A DNA stretch of 36,620 nt from a virus (lineage: Duplodnaviria; Heunggongvirae; Uroviricota; Caudoviricetes): the IMG/VR virus record IMGVR_UViG_2675903417_000002, positions 1-36,620 of that record; one strand, 5' to 3'. Shown in pieces: positions 29,239 to 36,620 of this stretch. Below the pieces are notes generated by a model that was not told the origin of the DNA, made no database searches, and saw only the letters and a program-made list of their open reading frames with translations. Each line of letters starts with the position of its first letter. The first letter of the stretch is position 1. The position numbers and the translations under genes are program-made.

Positions 29239-29732
29239 TAAGCCCCCACGTAATTCCCTGAGAGATACCACTCTTCACCTGATGCAGCCCGCTTACTGCT
29301 TTTCCGTAAACACCGTTCACGACGCGCCAGAAAATTGTTTCGTTCTGGCTGGGAGTGGCTTTCACGGAATGCCGCCATCCACACCGTTGCAGCACGACGG
29401 TATAAGCCCCTGGACTCCAGTTCTTCCGCCTGGCGGGTCAGGCACAAAATCACCCGCGGGTCGTTAGTGCCGACATAGAAATTGCGCACAGGTCTGGTTT
29501 CACGAACTGGTTGTAGTTCCGGATCCTGCGCTCTCTCAGTCAGGCGCGGGAAATGTCTGTGTGTATCTCCTTCACAACGGTGAGCCACACGCCCACTCTG
29601 ACGTAACTTGCTTGCTGACTGCAGAACGCGCTGCCGTGAGTAACCTGCAAAAGCATCCGCAATGTCTCCGGAAGTACAGCCCGGATGGGCTTCAATGAAT
29701 TTCTGAACGTCATTCAAAAGACTCATGCTCAC
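29238..29732 (-). CDS. Hypothetical protein, possible winged-helix N-terminus
   Basis: 164-aa ORF translationally coupled between the O-like gene and the methyltransferase. Confidence 0.4.
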   Translation of the reverse strand: MSMSLLNDVQKFIEAHPGCTSGDIADAFAGYSRQRVLQSASKLRQSGRVAHRCEGDTHRHFPRLTERAQDPELQPVRETRPVRNFYVGTNDPRVILCLTRQAEELESRGLYRRAATVWMAAFRESHSQPERNNFLARRERCLRKSSKRAASGEEWYLSGNYVGA

Positions 29733-30670
29733 CCCCTGAATCCTGCCGGGATCTGGCTGTAGTCCACATTGTCGTAACTGGCTTTGAAGTACGGGTCTTC
29801 GCGTTTTTCTGTGTACGTGCTGACGGACGGCGATAAGCGCAGGGAAAGCTCATCCCATTTTTCCCGCAGCTTCGACGGGCTGAGCACGTTACGGCACCAG
29901 AACGGATCGCGGCTGACGCGGCTGTACATCTCGCAGATTTGTTTGTGAGTACGACCATCCTGCACACACATCAGGCGAATTTCGTTTGCCCAGGCTGTCC
30001 AGTTCGGTTCTTTGGGACGAACCACCTCGCCGTCACATTCGGCAGCCTGCTCGTACAGGGCGATGATTTTTTTCCAGAGCCACTGTGCGCAGGTCAAATC
30101 ATCCTGCGTCCCCCACTGGCGCTTTTTAGGGCTGAATACAACCGCATCAGGATGGCGAGTTAAAAAATCCTGTTCAGCCGTCTGCGTGTCCGGTTGCGAA
30201 GCGTCCGGACGAGAAGGTTTTTTATCTGACGGATCATGTTTTGATTTTACTGACGGATCCCCGCCAGATTCTGACGGGTGAAAACCCGCTTTTTTGCCAG
30301 ATTTCGACGCATCAAATTTTGACGGGTCAGATTTTGATGCGTCAGATTTTGACGGGTCAGAATCTGACAGTTGAGAAAATGCCGCTGCCTGAAGCTTCGC
30401 AACGTTAAGCTGATAAACATTCGACGCATTGCGGTTACCCTGGCGACGCGCCTTACGCGTTAACCAGCCTTCTGCTTCCAGCCGTGCGATAGCCGTTCTG
30501 ACGGTACTCATCCCCGCGCCAATCTGACGGGCAATGGTTTCAATTGATGGCCAGCACACACCTTCGTCATTACTGAAATCAGCCAGGCGGGCCATAATTG
30601 CCACGCTGGATAACTTCATGCCTGATGCAGCGCAACCATCCCATACATAGCCGGTTAATTTAGTGCTCAT
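29729..30670 (-). CDS. Replication initiation protein (lambda O-like; N-terminal HTH, repeat linker, C-terminal domain)
   Basis: 313-aa ORF; N-terminal winged-helix typical of phage initiators; in-gene iteron array encoding DPSKS/DASKS repeats. Confidence 0.65.
   Translation of the reverse strand: MSTKLTGYVWDGCAASGMKLSSVAIMARLADFSNDEGVCWPSIETIARQIGAGMSTVRTAIARLEAEGWLTRKARRQGNRNASNVYQLNVAKLQAAAFSQLSDSDPSKSDASKSDPSKFDASKSGKKAGFHPSESGGDPSVKSKHDPSDKKPSRPDASQPDTQTAEQDFLTRHPDAVVFSPKKRQWGTQDDLTCAQWLWKKIIALYEQAAECDGEVVRPKEPNWTAWANEIRLMCVQDGRTHKQICEMYSRVSRDPFWCRNVLSPSKLREKWDELSLRLSPSVSTYTEKREDPYFKASYDNVDYSQIPAGFRG
30246..30373. repeat. Iteron array (about seven 15-bp direct repeats, consensus AGATTTTGACGGGTC) inside the replication gene: candidate origin
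   Basis: Tandem near-identical 15-mers read directly, in phase with the pentapeptide repeats of the initiator. Confidence 0.55.
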
Positions 30671-30679
30671 GACCGACCT

Positions 30680-31018
30680 CTATTTCCCTGAATTTACGAC
30701 GAAACTGTTCGAGCGGACTGAAGCATTCATGCTCATAACCTTCGCGGAGGTAGATAACCCGTTGTGTTTCCGGCTCCCAACGAATGACTCTGACGGGCAC
30801 TCCGTAGTGATCTTTGAACCAGCGGTTAACTTGTCGCAAAGGACTGTCTCCTTCTGCCGGTTGAAATCACCCACAGCCCACTCTGCAAAGCTGTGGGTGA
30901 CAATTTCCCTGTCACCTGGTACATTCACTGCATAGCAATACTCCACCTTCGCTTTTCCACCCGGTACAGGAAGCGCAATCAGTTGCGAGCGACGGTAGTG
31001 TGTTGTTAAACTGTTCAT
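30680..31018 (-). CDS. Hypothetical protein (112 aa)
   Basis: ATGA overlap with the upstream regulatory gene suggests coupling; an antisense ORF of similar length exists, so frame choice is uncertain. Confidence 0.35.
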
Positions 31019-31578
31019 GCGTTAGTTTCTCCACAGTCACGACACGCCACGGCGCCCGGAGCTGCACACTCGCGGGCGTCATTACTTTCTGAAATGCAAA
31101 AGATTTTGTAGACCAGTGCTGCATGCTCCTGCAGCTTCGAAATTGAGAGATACAGCTCGTCGTTAATTGCTGTCTTCTCATGCGGTTCCACTACACCGTC
31201 TTCGATTGCTGAACGAATCTGTTTTGAATAACTGCCGATCTGTTCAATGACTTCCAGCAGACGCTGGTTAATATCGGCGTTGTCCACATCCTCGACGTCA
31301 GGAAGAGACACAAAGACGCCATTTGCAGACTGCGCCACAGCGTCAGCAATGAAGTGAGTTCCACCAGCACGTTGCAAAATCATTGCCCATCCCAGCGGGA
31401 AAATCTGATCGCCATCGGCACGAAGGCGGTTAAATAATGCGTTCTCTGTTACATCCAGCCAGTCAGCTGCTTCAGCGTAACCACCCGGCAACTTTGCGAT
31501 AGTTTTTCTGACAGCTTTCACGTACCACTCAGGCTGTTTTTCTATTTTCCAGTGATGCTTACCCACGATTAGCCTCAT
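31015..31578 (-). CDS. Early regulatory protein (CII-like / YdaT-like), uncertain
   Basis: 187-aa ORF in the cII position downstream of the cro-like gene; family assignment from memory only. Confidence 0.4.
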
Positions 31579-31609
31579 CGTTCTGTGGTTAAAAATTGAA
31601 AGTGTTCTG

Positions 31610-31810
31610 CTAATCTTTCGGATAGATATCCGGTCTTAAGTCAGATTTCGTAATTGCACCTGACGTGCATTGCTCAAGTTTTTTAGCCAGCACAAAACTG
31701 GCTTTTTTATAGCCATTGAAAACCAGCCGTAAGTAGCCAGGTGTTGAGCCAACTTTTCCGGCCAACTCGCCCTGCTGTTCTTTGGTTAAAGAGTCCCAAT
31801 ACGCTTTCAT
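31610..31810 (-). CDS. Cro-like HTH regulator
   Basis: Track ORF trimmed to internal ATG (31808-31810) with GGAGG RBS; the longer version overlaps the divergent repressor; HTH-like GSTPGYLRLVFNGYKK. Confidence 0.5.
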   Translation of the reverse strand: MKAYWDSLTKEQQGELAGKVGSTPGYLRLVFNGYKKASFVLAKKLEQCTSGAITKSDLRPDIYPKD

Positions 31811-31864
31811 ACAATATGTACCTCCGATGTACATATTACATGATTGAAATGAACCTTCAAGATA

Positions 31865-31885
31865 CTTGTACCTTAACGGTACAAG
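31865..31885. promoter_or_regulatory. Operator-like palindrome CTTGTACC-N5-GGTACAAG between the divergent repressor and cro-like genes
   Basis: Perfect 8-bp arms; TGTACC half-site recurs at 31813-31837 and downstream of the repressor gene. Confidence 0.45.
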
Positions 31886-31900
31886 GGTTTTAATTTCGTT

Positions 31901-32575
31901 ATGAAAACAATCCATGACATCCGGCGGTCTAACGCCAGAAAACTGAGAGATGGTGTTGGCGGGAATTCTTCCTTTGCCACTATGATTGATCGCGAGCCAA
32001 CCCAGACCAGCAGGTTTATGGGAGATGGTGCTACTAAAAATATCGGTGACAGCATGGCACGACACATCGAAAAATGTTTCGACCTGCCTGTCGGATGGCT
32101 CGATCAAGAACACCAGACAACGAACATCACAAAAAAACCTGATGTTTCAATCACTAATAAACAAATCACATTAGTCCCTGTCATATCATGGGTACAGGCC
32201 GGAGCATGGAAAGAAGTTGGATATTCTGAGGTTGATTTGAGCACAGCAGAAACGTATCCCTGCCCTGTACCCTGTGGGGAAATGACTTATATCTTGCGGG
32301 TGATAGGTGATTCAATGATTGATGAGTACCGCCCGGGAGACATGATTTTTGTCGATCCTGAAGTACCTGCCTGCCACGGTGACGACGTTATTGCATTGAT
32401 GCACGATACAGGTGAAACCACCTTCAAAAGGTTGATAGAAGATGGGACACAGCGTTATCTCAAAGCGTTAAACCCAAACTGGCCTGAGCCTTACATTAAG
32501 ATCAACGGTAATTGCTCTATAATTGGTACAGTGATTTTCTCAGGAAAACCAAGAAGATACAAAATCAAAGCCTAA
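31901..32575 (+). CDS. CI-like prophage repressor with C-terminal S24 (LexA-like) autopeptidase domain
   Basis: 224-aa ORF; C-terminal domain closely resembles P22 c2 / LexA S24 domain (VIGDSM, FKRL, KINGNC); N-terminal XRE-like HTH. Confidence 0.8.
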   Translation: MKTIHDIRRSNARKLRDGVGGNSSFATMIDREPTQTSRFMGDGATKNIGDSMARHIEKCFDLPVGWLDQEHQTTNITKKPDVSITNKQITLVPVISWVQAGAWKEVGYSEVDLSTAETYPCPVPCGEMTYILRVIGDSMIDEYRPGDMIFVDPEVPACHGDDVIALMHDTGETTFKRLIEDGTQRYLKALNPNWPEPYIKINGNCSIIGTVIFSGKPRRYKIKA

Positions 32576-32587
32576 TCAATGTTTATG

Positions 32588-32610
32588 AACCTGCTTCGGC
32601 AGGTTTTTTT
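32588..32610 (+). terminator. Rho-independent terminator after the repressor gene
   Basis: Stem aacctgc/gcaggtt, loop ttcg, followed by T7. Confidence 0.6.
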
Positions 32611-32614
32611 ATAC

Positions 32615-32642
32615 TTGACAATGTACCTTTGAGATACATAAT
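32615..32642 (+). promoter_or_regulatory. PL-like promoter (TTGACA - 16 bp - CATAAT) with two ATGTACC operator-like repeats
   Basis: Consensus -35 read directly; ATGTACC at 32621-32627 and 32641-32647. Confidence 0.4.
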
Positions 32643-32768
32643 GTACCCAAGCGAAACAACGAACAGGCAGGACGCCCACGAAGTAGCCGCCTGGGGCATA
32701 TGAAGTCCAGGATGATTCGTTGAGTCATGTTGTGCCACTAGGCACTCATGTTAAAGCAGGTGTATGAA

Positions 32769-33044
32769 ATGAAAGTCCAGATTTTAAACAATAGTGGTGA
32801 AGTCGTTTGGTCATACGACATAGCCGCCCATGTAGATCAGAGCGGCGATAGCTGGGCCAATGGGAAACATCAGATTATGGCTGGAGTTGTGTTCTCTTTA
32901 CGCCGTGGTTTGGAACAGGCTGAAGTATTTCCATCAGACCCTGAATGGAAATGGCCTTTTTCTATTTGTCCAAATTCGGAGAGCACATTTCAGAAAATTG
33001 GTCAGAAAGTCGCACTCGAAGAGCATCAGCCAACTGTTTCCTGA
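32769..33044 (+). CDS. Hypothetical protein (91 aa), first gene of the leftward-operon equivalent
   Basis: Track ORF trimmed to ATG 32769 with AGGTG RBS; not Arg-rich, so not an obvious N-like antiterminator. Confidence 0.4.
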   Translation: MKVQILNNSGEVVWSYDIAAHVDQSGDSWANGKHQIMAGVVFSLRRGLEQAEVFPSDPEWKWPFSICPNSESTFQKIGQKVALEEHQPTVS

Positions 33045-33057
33045 TTTTTTCAGGTAA

Positions 33058-33207
33058 CTAGTCGGCATCGCAGAAACAACAACGCTCGATCATGTTGAAA
33101 GCCGATTCGTAGAACTGTTTCTGCTGAGTGTCGCTGAGACAGGAAAAGAGCGACGTTACGATGATTTTATTAATTGCATTATCAAGTTCTTTTTCATCAA
33201 AAGTCAT
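33058..33207 (-). CDS. Small Cys-rich ORF (49 aa), speculative
   Basis: ATG 33205-33207 with AGGA RBS; C-terminus CCFCDAD; below the track cutoff. Confidence 0.25.
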   Translation of the reverse strand: MTFDEKELDNAINKIIVTSLFSCLSDTQQKQFYESAFNMIERCCFCDAD

Positions 33208-33459
33208 TTGATTTTCCTTTTATGTATACGGGCTTAAAAGGATACCACCGAGCCTGAAGTGGTGAAAAGACAGGCACATAACAGCTAAGTATTTTCAACC
33301 AGAGAGAATCCTTAGCGTTGTGGTGAATGCGGCTCAGCGCACGCGGGTTAAGGTTGAGGCTGACAGTCGACCTTCTGTGGATACCCACCCGTCTGGTGTG
33401 CAACCTTCGCCAGGCACCGGGAGGCACCCGGCACCACAACTTTATGCTGTGTGTAGTCC

Positions 33460-33600
33460 TGGCGGTACCAGTTTGTACCCTTGCTTCCGGCTGGTACCGT
33501 CCTTTTTACAAAACAGAGAAGAGCATCACCGGACGACGGGCTCATAACCCAATCCATCCGGGCGGCTGCCACCGCAGGTGTTCTTCTCTGTTTTGTGGAG
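33460..33600. other. Unexplained structured element: GGTACCAG/CTGGTACC inverted repeat plus a long inverted repeat (15-bp perfect arms about 55 nt apart)
   Basis: Arms ACAAAACAGAGAAGA (33508-33522) and TCTTCTCTGTTTTGT (33583-33597) read directly; lies in the untranslated leader of the yfdP-like gene. Confidence 0.3.
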
Positions 33601-33644
33601 AAACTAATCGGCCTTGCAGGGTCGATATGATGAGGAGCAGCAAA

Positions 33645-34072: not shown

Positions 34073-34897
34073 ATGTCTCAGAACTTAGACGCAACCGCAA
34101 TTAATCAAATCCATGCCCTTATTTCTGCTCAGGGTGTTAATGAAATTATCAGTAAGATTGGTGCCGATGCTGTGGCATTGCCTGAGAATTTCCGCATTCA
34201 TGATCTGGAAAAATTTAATTTAAATCGCTTCCGTTTCCGTGGTGCGCTTTCCACTGCCAGCATCGATGACTTTACCCGTTATTCTAAAGATCTTGCAGAT
34301 GAAGGCACCCGCTGCTTTATCGATGCTGATAATATGCGTGCCGTCAGTGTGCTTAACCTGGGTACTATTGATGAACCAGGTCACGCAGATAACACCGCCA
34401 CTCTCAAACTGAAAAAGACAGCACCGTTCTCTGCTCTGTTGTCTGTTAATGGCGAGCGTAACTCCCAGAAATCACTGGCAGAATGGATTGAAGACTGGGC
34501 CGACTACCTTGTGGGCTTTGATGCTAATGGTGACGCCATTCAGGCAACCAAAGCGGCGGCAGCTATCCGTAAAATCACAATTGAAGCGAACCAGACCGCT
34601 GATTTTGAAGATAATGACTTCAGCGGCAAACGCTCCCTGATGGAGTCTGTCGAAGCGAAGACCAAAGACATTATGCCAGTGGCATTTGAATTTAAATGCG
34701 TTCCGTTTGAAGGCCTGAAAGAACGTTCATTTAAATTACGCCTCAGCATTATCACTGGCGATCGTCCTGTACTGGTTCTGCGCATTATTCAGCTGGAAGC
34801 GGTGCAGGAAGAAATGGCTAACGAATTTCGTGATCTGCTTGTTGAGAAATTCAAAGACAGCAAAGTAGAAACCTTTATTGGTACTTTCACCGCCTGA
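34073..34897 (+). CDS. yfdQ: YfdQ-like DUF2303 protein
   Basis: 274-aa ORF; length and gene order (before an HD-domain gene) match E. coli CPS-53 yfdQ as recalled; not verified by search. Confidence 0.5.
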
Positions 34898-35025
34898 TTT
34901 CATTACTGCAAATGCCCCTGCGGGGGCATTTATGGAAACGTAATTAACTCAATAATCGCCGGATGGTGAGGGCTTCCTTTTACCAGAATTCTGTGCGGTG
35001 CAGCGCAAATAACGTGGAGAACAAA

Positions 35026-35574
35026 ATGTCATTTATTAAAACTTTTTCTGGGAAGCATTTTTATTATGACAGGATAAATAAAGACGACATCGTTATTAAC
35101 GATATCGCGGTTTCCCTTTCAAATATCTGTCGCTTTGCAGGACATCTTTCACACTTCTACAGCGTCGCCCAACATGCGGTGCTTTGCAGCCAGCTGGTAC
35201 CGCAGGAATTTGCTTTTGAAGCGTTAATGCATGATGCAACAGAAGCTTATTGTCAGGACATCCCCGCGCCAATGAAACGCCTTCTTCCTGACTATAAACG
35301 GATGGAAGAAAAAATAGACGCCGTAATCCGTGAGAAATACGGGTTACCCCCGGTTATGAGCACGCCTGTGAAATATGCCGATCTCATCATGCTGGCAACC
35401 GAACGCCGCGATCTCGGGCTTGATGATGGCTCTTTCTGGTCTGTACTGGAAGGTATCCCGGCAACAGAGATGTTCAAAGTGATTCCACTGGCACCGGGCC
35501 ATGCCTACGGGATGTTTATGGAACGCTTTAAAGAGCTGCATAAGATACATAAACAATCCAGACAGCGAAATTAA
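35026..35574 (+). CDS. yfdR: HD-domain phosphohydrolase (YfdR-like 5'-deoxynucleotidase)
   Basis: HD motifs (SVAQHAVL ... LMHDATEAY); start set at ATG 35026 with GGAGAA RBS. Confidence 0.65.
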   Translation: MSFIKTFSGKHFYYDRINKDDIVINDIAVSLSNICRFAGHLSHFYSVAQHAVLCSQLVPQEFAFEALMHDATEAYCQDIPAPMKRLLPDYKRMEEKIDAVIREKYGLPPVMSTPVKYADLIMLATERRDLGLDDGSFWSVLEGIPATEMFKVIPLAPGHAYGMFMERFKELHKIHKQSRQRN

Positions 35575-35602: not shown

Positions 35603-35863
35603 ATGAGGTTATCAAAAATGCTTCAAATGCTGACACTTGAGGAATGGGCTGCGGAAAAATTTAGGAGTAATCCTCCAAGTGTGTCCACATTGCGTCGTTA
35701 TGCTAAGCAGAATTTATTTTGTCCACCGGCAATGAAACAAGGTCGACTATGGCGAGTACGTGAGGACGCAGAGTTAGTTGGGGAATTAGTTACTCCTGTC
35801 ATCAAGAAAAATGATTCTATTATTCTACAAAGGATTTTAAGTAATGGCAGCCAGACCACGTAA
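35603..35863 (+). CDS. xis: Excisionase (lambda Xis-like)
   Basis: LTLEEWAAEKF...LRRYAKQNLFCPPAMKQGRLWRVRE resembles lambda Xis; overlaps the int start. Confidence 0.65.
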   Translation: MRLSKMLQMLTLEEWAAEKFRSNPPSVSTLRRYAKQNLFCPPAMKQGRLWRVREDAELVGELVTPVIKKNDSIILQRILSNGSQTT

Positions 35864-36500
35864 AAATAATGTTTCAGTCCCGAACTTGTATCCACTCTAT
35901 AGCAGAAAAGTAAATAAAGTTTATTGGCGATATAAGCATCCAGTGACCGGGAAGTTTCATTCTTTGGGCACAAACGAAGCTGAAGCCATTGCTATTGCCA
36001 CTGAGGCCAATACACGCCTGGCTGAGCAAAGAACCCGGCAGATTCTGGCTATCAGTGACAGAATCGCAACCAGCAAAGGAAAAGCAATCACAACGTCAAC
36101 CTGGTTAGATCGCTATCAAGCAATCCAGGATGACAGACTGAAAAGTGGCGATATAAAGCTCAATACCTATAAACAGAAAGCCAAACCAGTATCCTTGCTC
36201 AGGGAACGAGCAGGACTGAAGTTAATTTCAGCCGTTGATGTCAGGGATATAGCCCAGTTGCTTGACGAGTATATCGCCGTCGGACAGCCGAGAATGGCGC
36301 AAGTAGTTCGTTCCGTCCTGATTGATGTATTCAAGGAGGCGCAACACTACGGAGAAGTCCCCCCGGGCTATAACCCGGCATTAGCCACCAAACAGCCCAG
36401 AAGAAAAATTACCCGACAACGGTTAAGTCTTGAAGAATGGCAAAAAATCTTTGAAATCGCAGATGCCAGTCATCGTTATATGGGGAATGGGCTTTGTTGA
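35844..36500 (+). pseudogene. int: Tyrosine integrase, N-terminal ~218 aa only (catalytic domain missing)
   Basis: N-terminal and core-binding region align with lambda Int (PNLY..., WLDRY...), but all three frames hit stops between 36498 and 36519. Confidence 0.55.
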
Positions 36501-36545
36501 ATAAATCAGATTTCGGGTAAGTCTCCCCCGTAGCGGGTTGTGTTT

Positions 36546-36620
36546 TCAGGCAATACGCACGCTTTCAGGCATACCTGCTTTCGTCATTTTGTTCAGCGCT
36601 CGTACCAGGGCCATAGCCTC
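36546..36620 (-). CDS. 3' end of an unidentified minus-strand gene entering from beyond the window
   Basis: Open frame from the window edge ending ...KMTKAGMPESVRIA then TGA at 36546-36548; only 24 codons visible. Confidence 0.25.
   Translation of the reverse strand, partial: EAMALVRALNKMTKAGMPESVRIA

Follow-up and report, generated by a model that had tools for sequence, protein, structure and literature searches.

An early-left yfdP-yfdQ-yfdR block in a temperate phage resembling SfV

The three genes in front of the excisionase and integrase genes of the window, by which we mean the whole 36,620-nucleotide stretch of DNA that was analyzed, are almost certainly yfdP, yfdQ and yfdR. Together they form an ordinary yfdP-yfdQ-yfdR block, which lies in the early-left operon of a temperate phage resembling SfV, with a Mu-like tail and a lambdoid control region. 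This block is already known, as it has been named, annotated in RefSeq and partly characterized, and it is very common in E. coli. Our leading reading of its function, to which we assign a probability of roughly 0.4, is that of an early-left module, silent in the lysogen and expressed early after induction, in which YfdR would damp host initiation beside a YfdP-YfdQ unit. A sequence-only reading of the same DNA had described a DUF2303 protein followed by an HD-domain enzyme at 34073-35574, and both ORFs proved to be real and intact on the + strand, with matches far beyond chance. That reading had overlooked yfdP and the cut of int by IS903B at ~36490.

Table 1. Features between the cI-like gene and the end of the window (positions are those of the window).
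Feature	Position	Strand	Evidence or remark
cI-like repressor gene	31901-32575		Peptidase_S24 domain
cI terminator	32587-32606		directly 3' of cI; terminator scan
putative pL-like early-left promoter, TTGACA-16-CATAAT, 11/12	32615-32642	+	promoter scan; function predicted
orf33	32748-33044	+	between the cI-like gene and yfdP
yfdP, 120 aa	33645-34007	+	99% identity to K-12 YfdP; phrog_204 match
yfdQ, 274 aa, DUF2303 family	34073-34897	+	Pfam PF10065, phrog_210 match
hairpin, 9-bp perfect stem with 4-nt loop, AAATGCCCC-TGCG-GGGGCATTT	34921-34942		in the 128-nt yfdQ/yfdR spacer; read from the sequence
yfdR, 182 aa, small HD-domain phosphohydrolase, 5'-deoxynucleotidase type	35026-35574	+	phrog_318, E 6e-107
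xisE-type excisionase	35618-35863	+	Pfam Exc, E 2e-12; RefSeq annotation of a 97.7%-identical locus
intE-type (e14 / icd-site) integrase, 5' part, interrupted	35844-36489	+	lambda-integrase arm-binding domain, E 8.5e-38
IS903B (IS5 family) end inside int	36490-36620		100% identity to IS903B ends on thousands of plasmids

The features follow in the order cI, terminator, operator-overlapped promoter, orf33, yfdP, yfdQ, yfdR, xis and int, with orf33 and the later genes on the + strand, and a stretch of ~600 nt from orf33 to yfdP holds no convincing gene. All three yfd genes are intact ORFs. The YfdQ-like and YfdR-type assignments made from the sequence alone were borne out by HMM annotation, in which DUF2303 was covered at full length, and by protein identity to K-12, at 99% for YfdQ and 94% for YfdR (176 of 178 residues, with the gene in the same place after yfdQ). 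It was noted that RefSeq gives the same gene names at the 97.7%-identical locus, and that the DNA from orf33 to orf30 of Shigella phage SfV is ~98% identical to the window. At a DNA identity of at least 95%, 3012 of 5426 complete E. coli genomes carry the block, which is essentially full length in 2456 of them. The structural genes of the window are SfII/SfI/SfV-like. The excisionase and integrase genes lie directly downstream of yfdR, as had been claimed, and the earlier description of an accessory or host-takeover region at the integrase-proximal end agrees with the lambdoid early-left operon placement. Scans of the whole window with Rfam and for tRNAs were both empty.

Among the closest named systems, the E. 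coli K-12 cryptic prophage CPS-53 (KpLE1) has the identical yfdP-yfdQ-yfdR order, with protein identities of 99%, 99% and 94%, but goes on with yfdS, yfdT and torI, its integrase being intS at argW. Similarity to both K-12 and SfV ends at window position 35535, within the 3' end of yfdR, and past this point e14-type xisE/intE genes stand in place of yfdS-yfdT. This mosaic junction explains why the last ~13 YfdR codons differ from K-12 and SfV and why the window lacks yfdS and yfdT, neither of which gave a tblastn match anywhere in it. SfV, with its orf32-orf31-orf30, shares the cI, terminator and early-left layout; orf31 and orf30 correspond to yfdQ and yfdR, and phages SfII, SfIV, mEp460 and the Stx2c phages were grouped with it as closest systems. 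SfV then continues with orf29 and orf28 (homologues of yfdS/yfdT), its own xis-int and gtrABV, whereas the e14-type xis-int of the window is broken by IS903B. The similarity of int to E. coli prophages stops at 36489, where the insertion sequence interrupts the gene after its first ~215 codons (the intact homologue has 376 aa in H1), and the prophage probably cannot excise with the help of its own integrase.

The pL-like promoter was the best promoter-like site of the region and the only strong one upstream of yfdPQR. Between its hexamers sits a cI-type operator half-palindrome, TGTACCTTTGAGATACA (32622-32638). The motif TGTAC-N7-GTACA occurs in three copies in the 36.6 kb window, two of them in the cI/cro intergenic region and one at this promoter, and the yfd genes are co-oriented behind it within the early-left operon. 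As judged from these motifs, the arrangement is a lambda-type pL/oL layout, which leads us to expect repression of yfdPQR in the lysogen, where they are probably silent, and early transcription after induction. Repression of this promoter by cI carries the caveat that the operator-like site is single and that terminators lie between the promoter and yfdP. The hairpin in the yfdQ/yfdR spacer has no T tract on either strand and was not called by the terminator scan. It may be the reason that K-12 databases list a yfdPQ operon apart from yfdR.

We then consider the HD enzyme. The mechanical ORF starts at 34963, and the true start is the ATG at 35026, which has a GGAG ribosome-binding site upstream and gives the 182 aa found in RefSeq. 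The intact H...HD motifs described earlier were seen again as the conserved H50, H69-D70 and D119; in an alignment of 59 homologues, each of these residues and of E73 and D78 is shared by at least 95% of the sequences. The alignment includes Atu1052 (PDB 2gz4, E 2.7e-13), the nearest relative with a solved structure. With the HD residues present and conserved, the catalytic site of YfdR looks intact. The PHROGs description of phrog_318 is 'deoxyribonucleoside 5' monophosphate phosphatase', and K-12 YfdR is described as a metal-dependent 5'-(deoxy)nucleotidase of weak activity and low nucleotide affinity (Zimmerman 2008, as cited in PMC4776307).

YfbR, the housekeeping 5'-deoxynucleotidase of E. 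coli, has in common with YfdR the HD superfamily, the HD...E...D motif block and the reaction class. The two are only 33% identical over 40 residues, however, and the nucleotide affinity of YfbR is much higher than that reported for YfdR (PMC4776307, citing Zimmerman 2008). Membership of YfdR in the YfbR family proper was rejected, as it scored 24.7 bits against a cutoff of 25.9 for Pfam PF12917 and 19.9 against 122 bits for the NCBIfam equivalog NF003009. By these sequence comparisons YfdR is only a distant relative of YfbR. The deoxynucleoside-5'-monophosphatase Dmp of phage T5 is likewise the product of an early phage gene and resembles YfdR in annotated reaction; it was rejected as a relative, with no detectable sequence similarity, and is an analogue only.

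YfdQ matched Pfam DUF2303 over residues 7-272 of 274, scoring 309.7 bits (cutoff 26.6; E 1.9e-92). The family comprises 3868 clusters at 50% identity (E <= 1e-3), and the best 150 of these 3868 representatives are all single-stretch proteins of ~250-296 residues. Among 72 DUF2303 sequences, E46, R54, R56, D106, R166, P202 and G270 (window numbering) are invariant, and the family carries a PGHAD motif along with its invariant arginines. YfdQ proteins are also uniformly acidic, with a median pI of 5.2 over 72 homologues. An AlphaFold2 model was built from the 72-sequence alignment (pLDDT 85), and fold searches with it returned no characterized structural relative, from libraries that lacked PDB entry 9o7m, and no similarity to a recombinase or to the Rad52, RecT, Erf or Gam types. 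Entry 9o7m, titled 'YfdQ Protein', has 36 chains and is a homologue of YfdQ (E 4.6e-45). Its protein comes from a Xanthomonas phage of the MET23-P3 type and resembles that of the window in being a DUF2303 protein of 274 aa with a YfdP homologue upstream, at an identity of ~38%. In this Xanthomonas phage, yfdQ is followed by a 401-aa protein and, a few genes on, by Erf-YqaJ-SSB, with no HD enzyme. We found no paper associated with 9o7m and no PDB entry for YfdP or the 401-aa neighbor.

To establish which genes travel with yfdQ, two sets of loci were taken from two YfdQ sub-alignments: 80 loci in species-representative genomes, mostly Enterobacterales, and 80 more divergent IMG/VR contigs. YfdP was found at 79 of 80 loci in the species-representative set (directly upstream in 78) and at all 80 in the IMG/VR contigs (strictly adjacent in 76), and thus near YfdQ in 159/160 loci and directly upstream in ~154/160. 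YfdR, in contrast, was located within 4 kb downstream of YfdQ at 56/80 species-representative loci (adjacent in 49/80) and accompanied YfdQ in 16/80 IMG/VR contigs, which gives 72/160 for both sets together. Among the non-Enterobacterales loci of the species-representative set, YfdR was missing in all but one. YfdR-like HD proteins were recorded in 330 phage records compared to 183 for YfdQ, and many large virulent phages of Caulobacter, Bacillus, Stenotrophomonas and Pseudomonas carry such enzymes without YfdQ, while the Stx2a phages have YfdQ without YfdR. The view of YfdQ and YfdR as a dedicated pair was thus not upheld. From the counts over 160 loci and the phage records, the conserved unit is YfdP-YfdQ, and YfdR is a frequent but replaceable companion.

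The surroundings of yfdQ were also characterized. Of the 80 species-representative loci, 59 have a cI-like S24 repressor upstream and ~18 have xis/int downstream. In loci lacking YfdR, the gene after yfdQ is often one for a DEDDh 3'-5' exonuclease or an SSB, which points to a DNA-metabolism setting. The exonuclease (Rv2179c-like, PF16473) lies just downstream of yfdQ or yfdR in 22/80 loci. It was also noted that the database proteins P0011, P0074 and P0153 combine YfdP (PF27127) and DUF2303 domains, perhaps as true fusions or else as a product of read-through in gene calling, and in both cases they fit a functional link between YfdP and YfdQ.

[quoted passage not shown] A plasmid carrying only yfdQR gave no suppression of hda-185, and yfdP was dispensable (PMC4776307). 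Purified K-12 YfdR binds DnaA domain I in a Phe46-dependent manner, in moderate competition with DiaA and DnaB. In pull-downs, YfdQ bound strongly neither to YfdR nor to DnaA (PMC4776307). Deletion of yfdQRST had no replication phenotype, and the authors themselves left an overexpression artefact possible (PMC4776307). Both dNMP phosphatase activity and binding to DnaA domain I are known for K-12 YfdR only (PMC4776307). The reported effect can be likened to that of other DnaA inhibitors (lambda P, B. subtilis SirA and Dps), which bind DnaA and lower oriC initiation but have no sequence relationship to YfdR; lambda P targets DnaA domain III, whereas K-12 YfdR targets domain I at Phe46. According to a preprint, a resident phage is triggered to form plaques when YfdQ is produced in a host that carries CPS-53.

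From these observations, we favor the early-left module introduced above. The yfdPQR genes would be silent in the lysogen and, upon induction, would be transcribed early from pL. YfdR would then damp the initiation of the host chromosome in favor of phage replication, and might also trim dNMPs. YfdP and YfdQ would form a separate, tightly linked unit acting on the same stage of DNA metabolism as YfdR and, in E. coli, would be required for the effect of YfdR in vivo. We hold this mechanism at its modest grade because it rests on K-12 overexpression work with a gene set that is incomplete in the window. Against it stand the lack of yfdS and yfdT, one of which is needed for hda-185 suppression, the missing replication phenotype of the yfdQRST deletion, the possible overexpression artefact, the pull-down results for YfdQ and the caveat on repression by cI. 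The part given to YfdQ is a guess, since this protein has no characterized structural relative.

A further question is whether the genes serve instead in conflict with other phages or with the host. In prophage defense, YfdR and YfdQ expressed in the lysogen would deplete deoxynucleotide pools and so abort or exclude superinfecting phages, and nucleotide-depleting HD-domain enzymes are indeed known defense effectors. Furthermore, yfdPQ mRNA is detectable in growing K-12, whose CPS-53 has lost the repressor region (PMC9181523). However, none of YfdP, YfdQ, YfdR and orf33 had a PADLOC-DB v2 match at E <= 0.01, and YfdR is a 182-aa enzyme of the weak dNMP-phosphatase type, of low nucleotide affinity in the report cited above, and no dNTP triphosphohydrolase or deaminase. 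In an engineered strain, deletion of yfdR left the CMP yield unaltered (PMC10870394). The genes also appear not to be a separately promoted moron, as they are co-oriented within the early-left operon behind the operator-overlapped promoter and are probably silent in the lysogen. Large virulent phages commonly carry YfdR-like enzymes, and the published phenotype is a DnaA-mediated inhibition of host replication initiation. We therefore find the defense role that had been suggested for yfdQ/yfdR to be unsupported speculation, and the whole explanation to be exceedingly improbable. Counter-defense would place the module in lytic growth, where it would neutralize a host immune system; YfdR might hydrolyze a nucleotide signal or product, and YfdP-YfdQ might sequester or mimic a target. 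The position in an early operon is typical of anti-defense genes, YfdQ proteins are uniformly acidic and belong to a large, phage-borne and uncharacterized family, and even distant phages keep YfdP and YfdQ together. Nevertheless, the literature retrieved under these gene and family names held no anti-defense role, the published phenotypes concern DnaA/replication and stress tolerance, and the neighbors of yfdQ (SSB, exonuclease, Erf/YqaJ) resemble DNA metabolism more than immune evasion. Nothing that we found points to counter-defense, and we judge it quite unlikely.

A recombination, repair or replication accessory has a somewhat better, though still minor, chance of being correct. YfdP-YfdQ would here be an oligomer handling DNA ends or ssDNA beside phage SSB, exonuclease and annealing proteins, with YfdR as an independent nucleotide-salvage enzyme that shares the operon. 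The early-left position equivalent to yfdPQR holds exo-bet-gam in lambda, and no recognizable Rec module lies between cI and int in the window. The downstream neighbors described above, namely the DEDDh exonuclease, SSB and the Erf-YqaJ-SSB of the Xanthomonas phage, would agree with such a role, as would the several invariant arginines and PGHAD motif of YfdQ; the 36 chains of one PDB entry would fit a large oligomer. Deletion of yfdQ is weakly MMS- and H2O2-sensitive, as cited in PMC4776307. Against this, YfdQ is acidic and its modeled fold appears unlike the Rad52, RecT, Erf and Gam types, and Pfam searches of YfdP, YfdQ and YfdR gave no hit to the Exo/YqaJ, Bet/RecT/Erf/Sak or Gam/Abc families. 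A 2025 survey of lambdoid phages often encountered the trio in early-left operons, whether or not a Rec module was present, and its authors judged a hidden recombination role unlikely, pointing out that phages whose Rec module is complete can carry the trio too and that not every phage lacking such a module has it (PMC12315714).

A broader proposal, which we also consider unlikely, is that YfdP-YfdQ is an obligate two-gene phage module, perhaps a large assembly (36 chains in 9o7m), with an undescribed function in early infection, either host-replication takeover with YfdR or the neutralizing of host defense. The HD enzyme would be one of several interchangeable downstream partners, along with the DEDDh exonuclease and SSB. 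It follows from the linkage that yfdQ is better studied together with yfdP than with yfdR, and DUF2303, despite its deposited structure, is still a large phage family to which no activity has been assigned.

The intact control region also bears on how K-12 results are read. A 3.2-kb deletion in CPS-53, equal to window 30438-33625, has removed half of the O-like gene, the cII-like gene, cro, cI, pL and orf33, and through this loss K-12 yfdP no longer lies behind a repressor-controlled promoter. With the block apparently under cI/pL control in an intact prophage, the phenotypes seen on overexpression in K-12 can be read as those of an early lytic function in the ancestral phage.

Several minor observations were made around this deletion. 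K-12 (L003 6879-7700) matches the window at 99-100% on both flanks, and the deletion fuses the iteron region to a point 19 bp upstream of yfdP. At 30312-30367 the window has four 11-bp repeats with 15-bp spacing, one TCAAATTTTGA, two copies of TCAGATTTTGA and one inverted TCAGATTCTGA. They are inside the O-like replication gene (29729-30670, - strand) and look like origin iterons. The same sequences occur in K-12 between yfdO and yfdP, where footprinting had defined them as 'SrsR boxes' (PMC9181523), and owing to this identity the strongest SrsR site of K-12 may be a relic phage origin.

Between orf33 and yfdP, an unannotated 49-aa ORF (MTFDEKELDNAINKII...CCFCDAD) with an AGGA ribosome-binding site was noted on the - strand at 33058-33207. 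It runs against the early-left operon and is annotated neither in SfV nor in the RefSeq homologue. The G+C-rich segment at 33327-33644 shares the yfdP reading frame, so that a mechanical ORF of 226 aa results, and PGAP labels its equivalent a frameshifted hypothetical protein. Related phages keep ~97% identity from window position 33245 onward, and this conserved stretch covers the G+C-rich segment.
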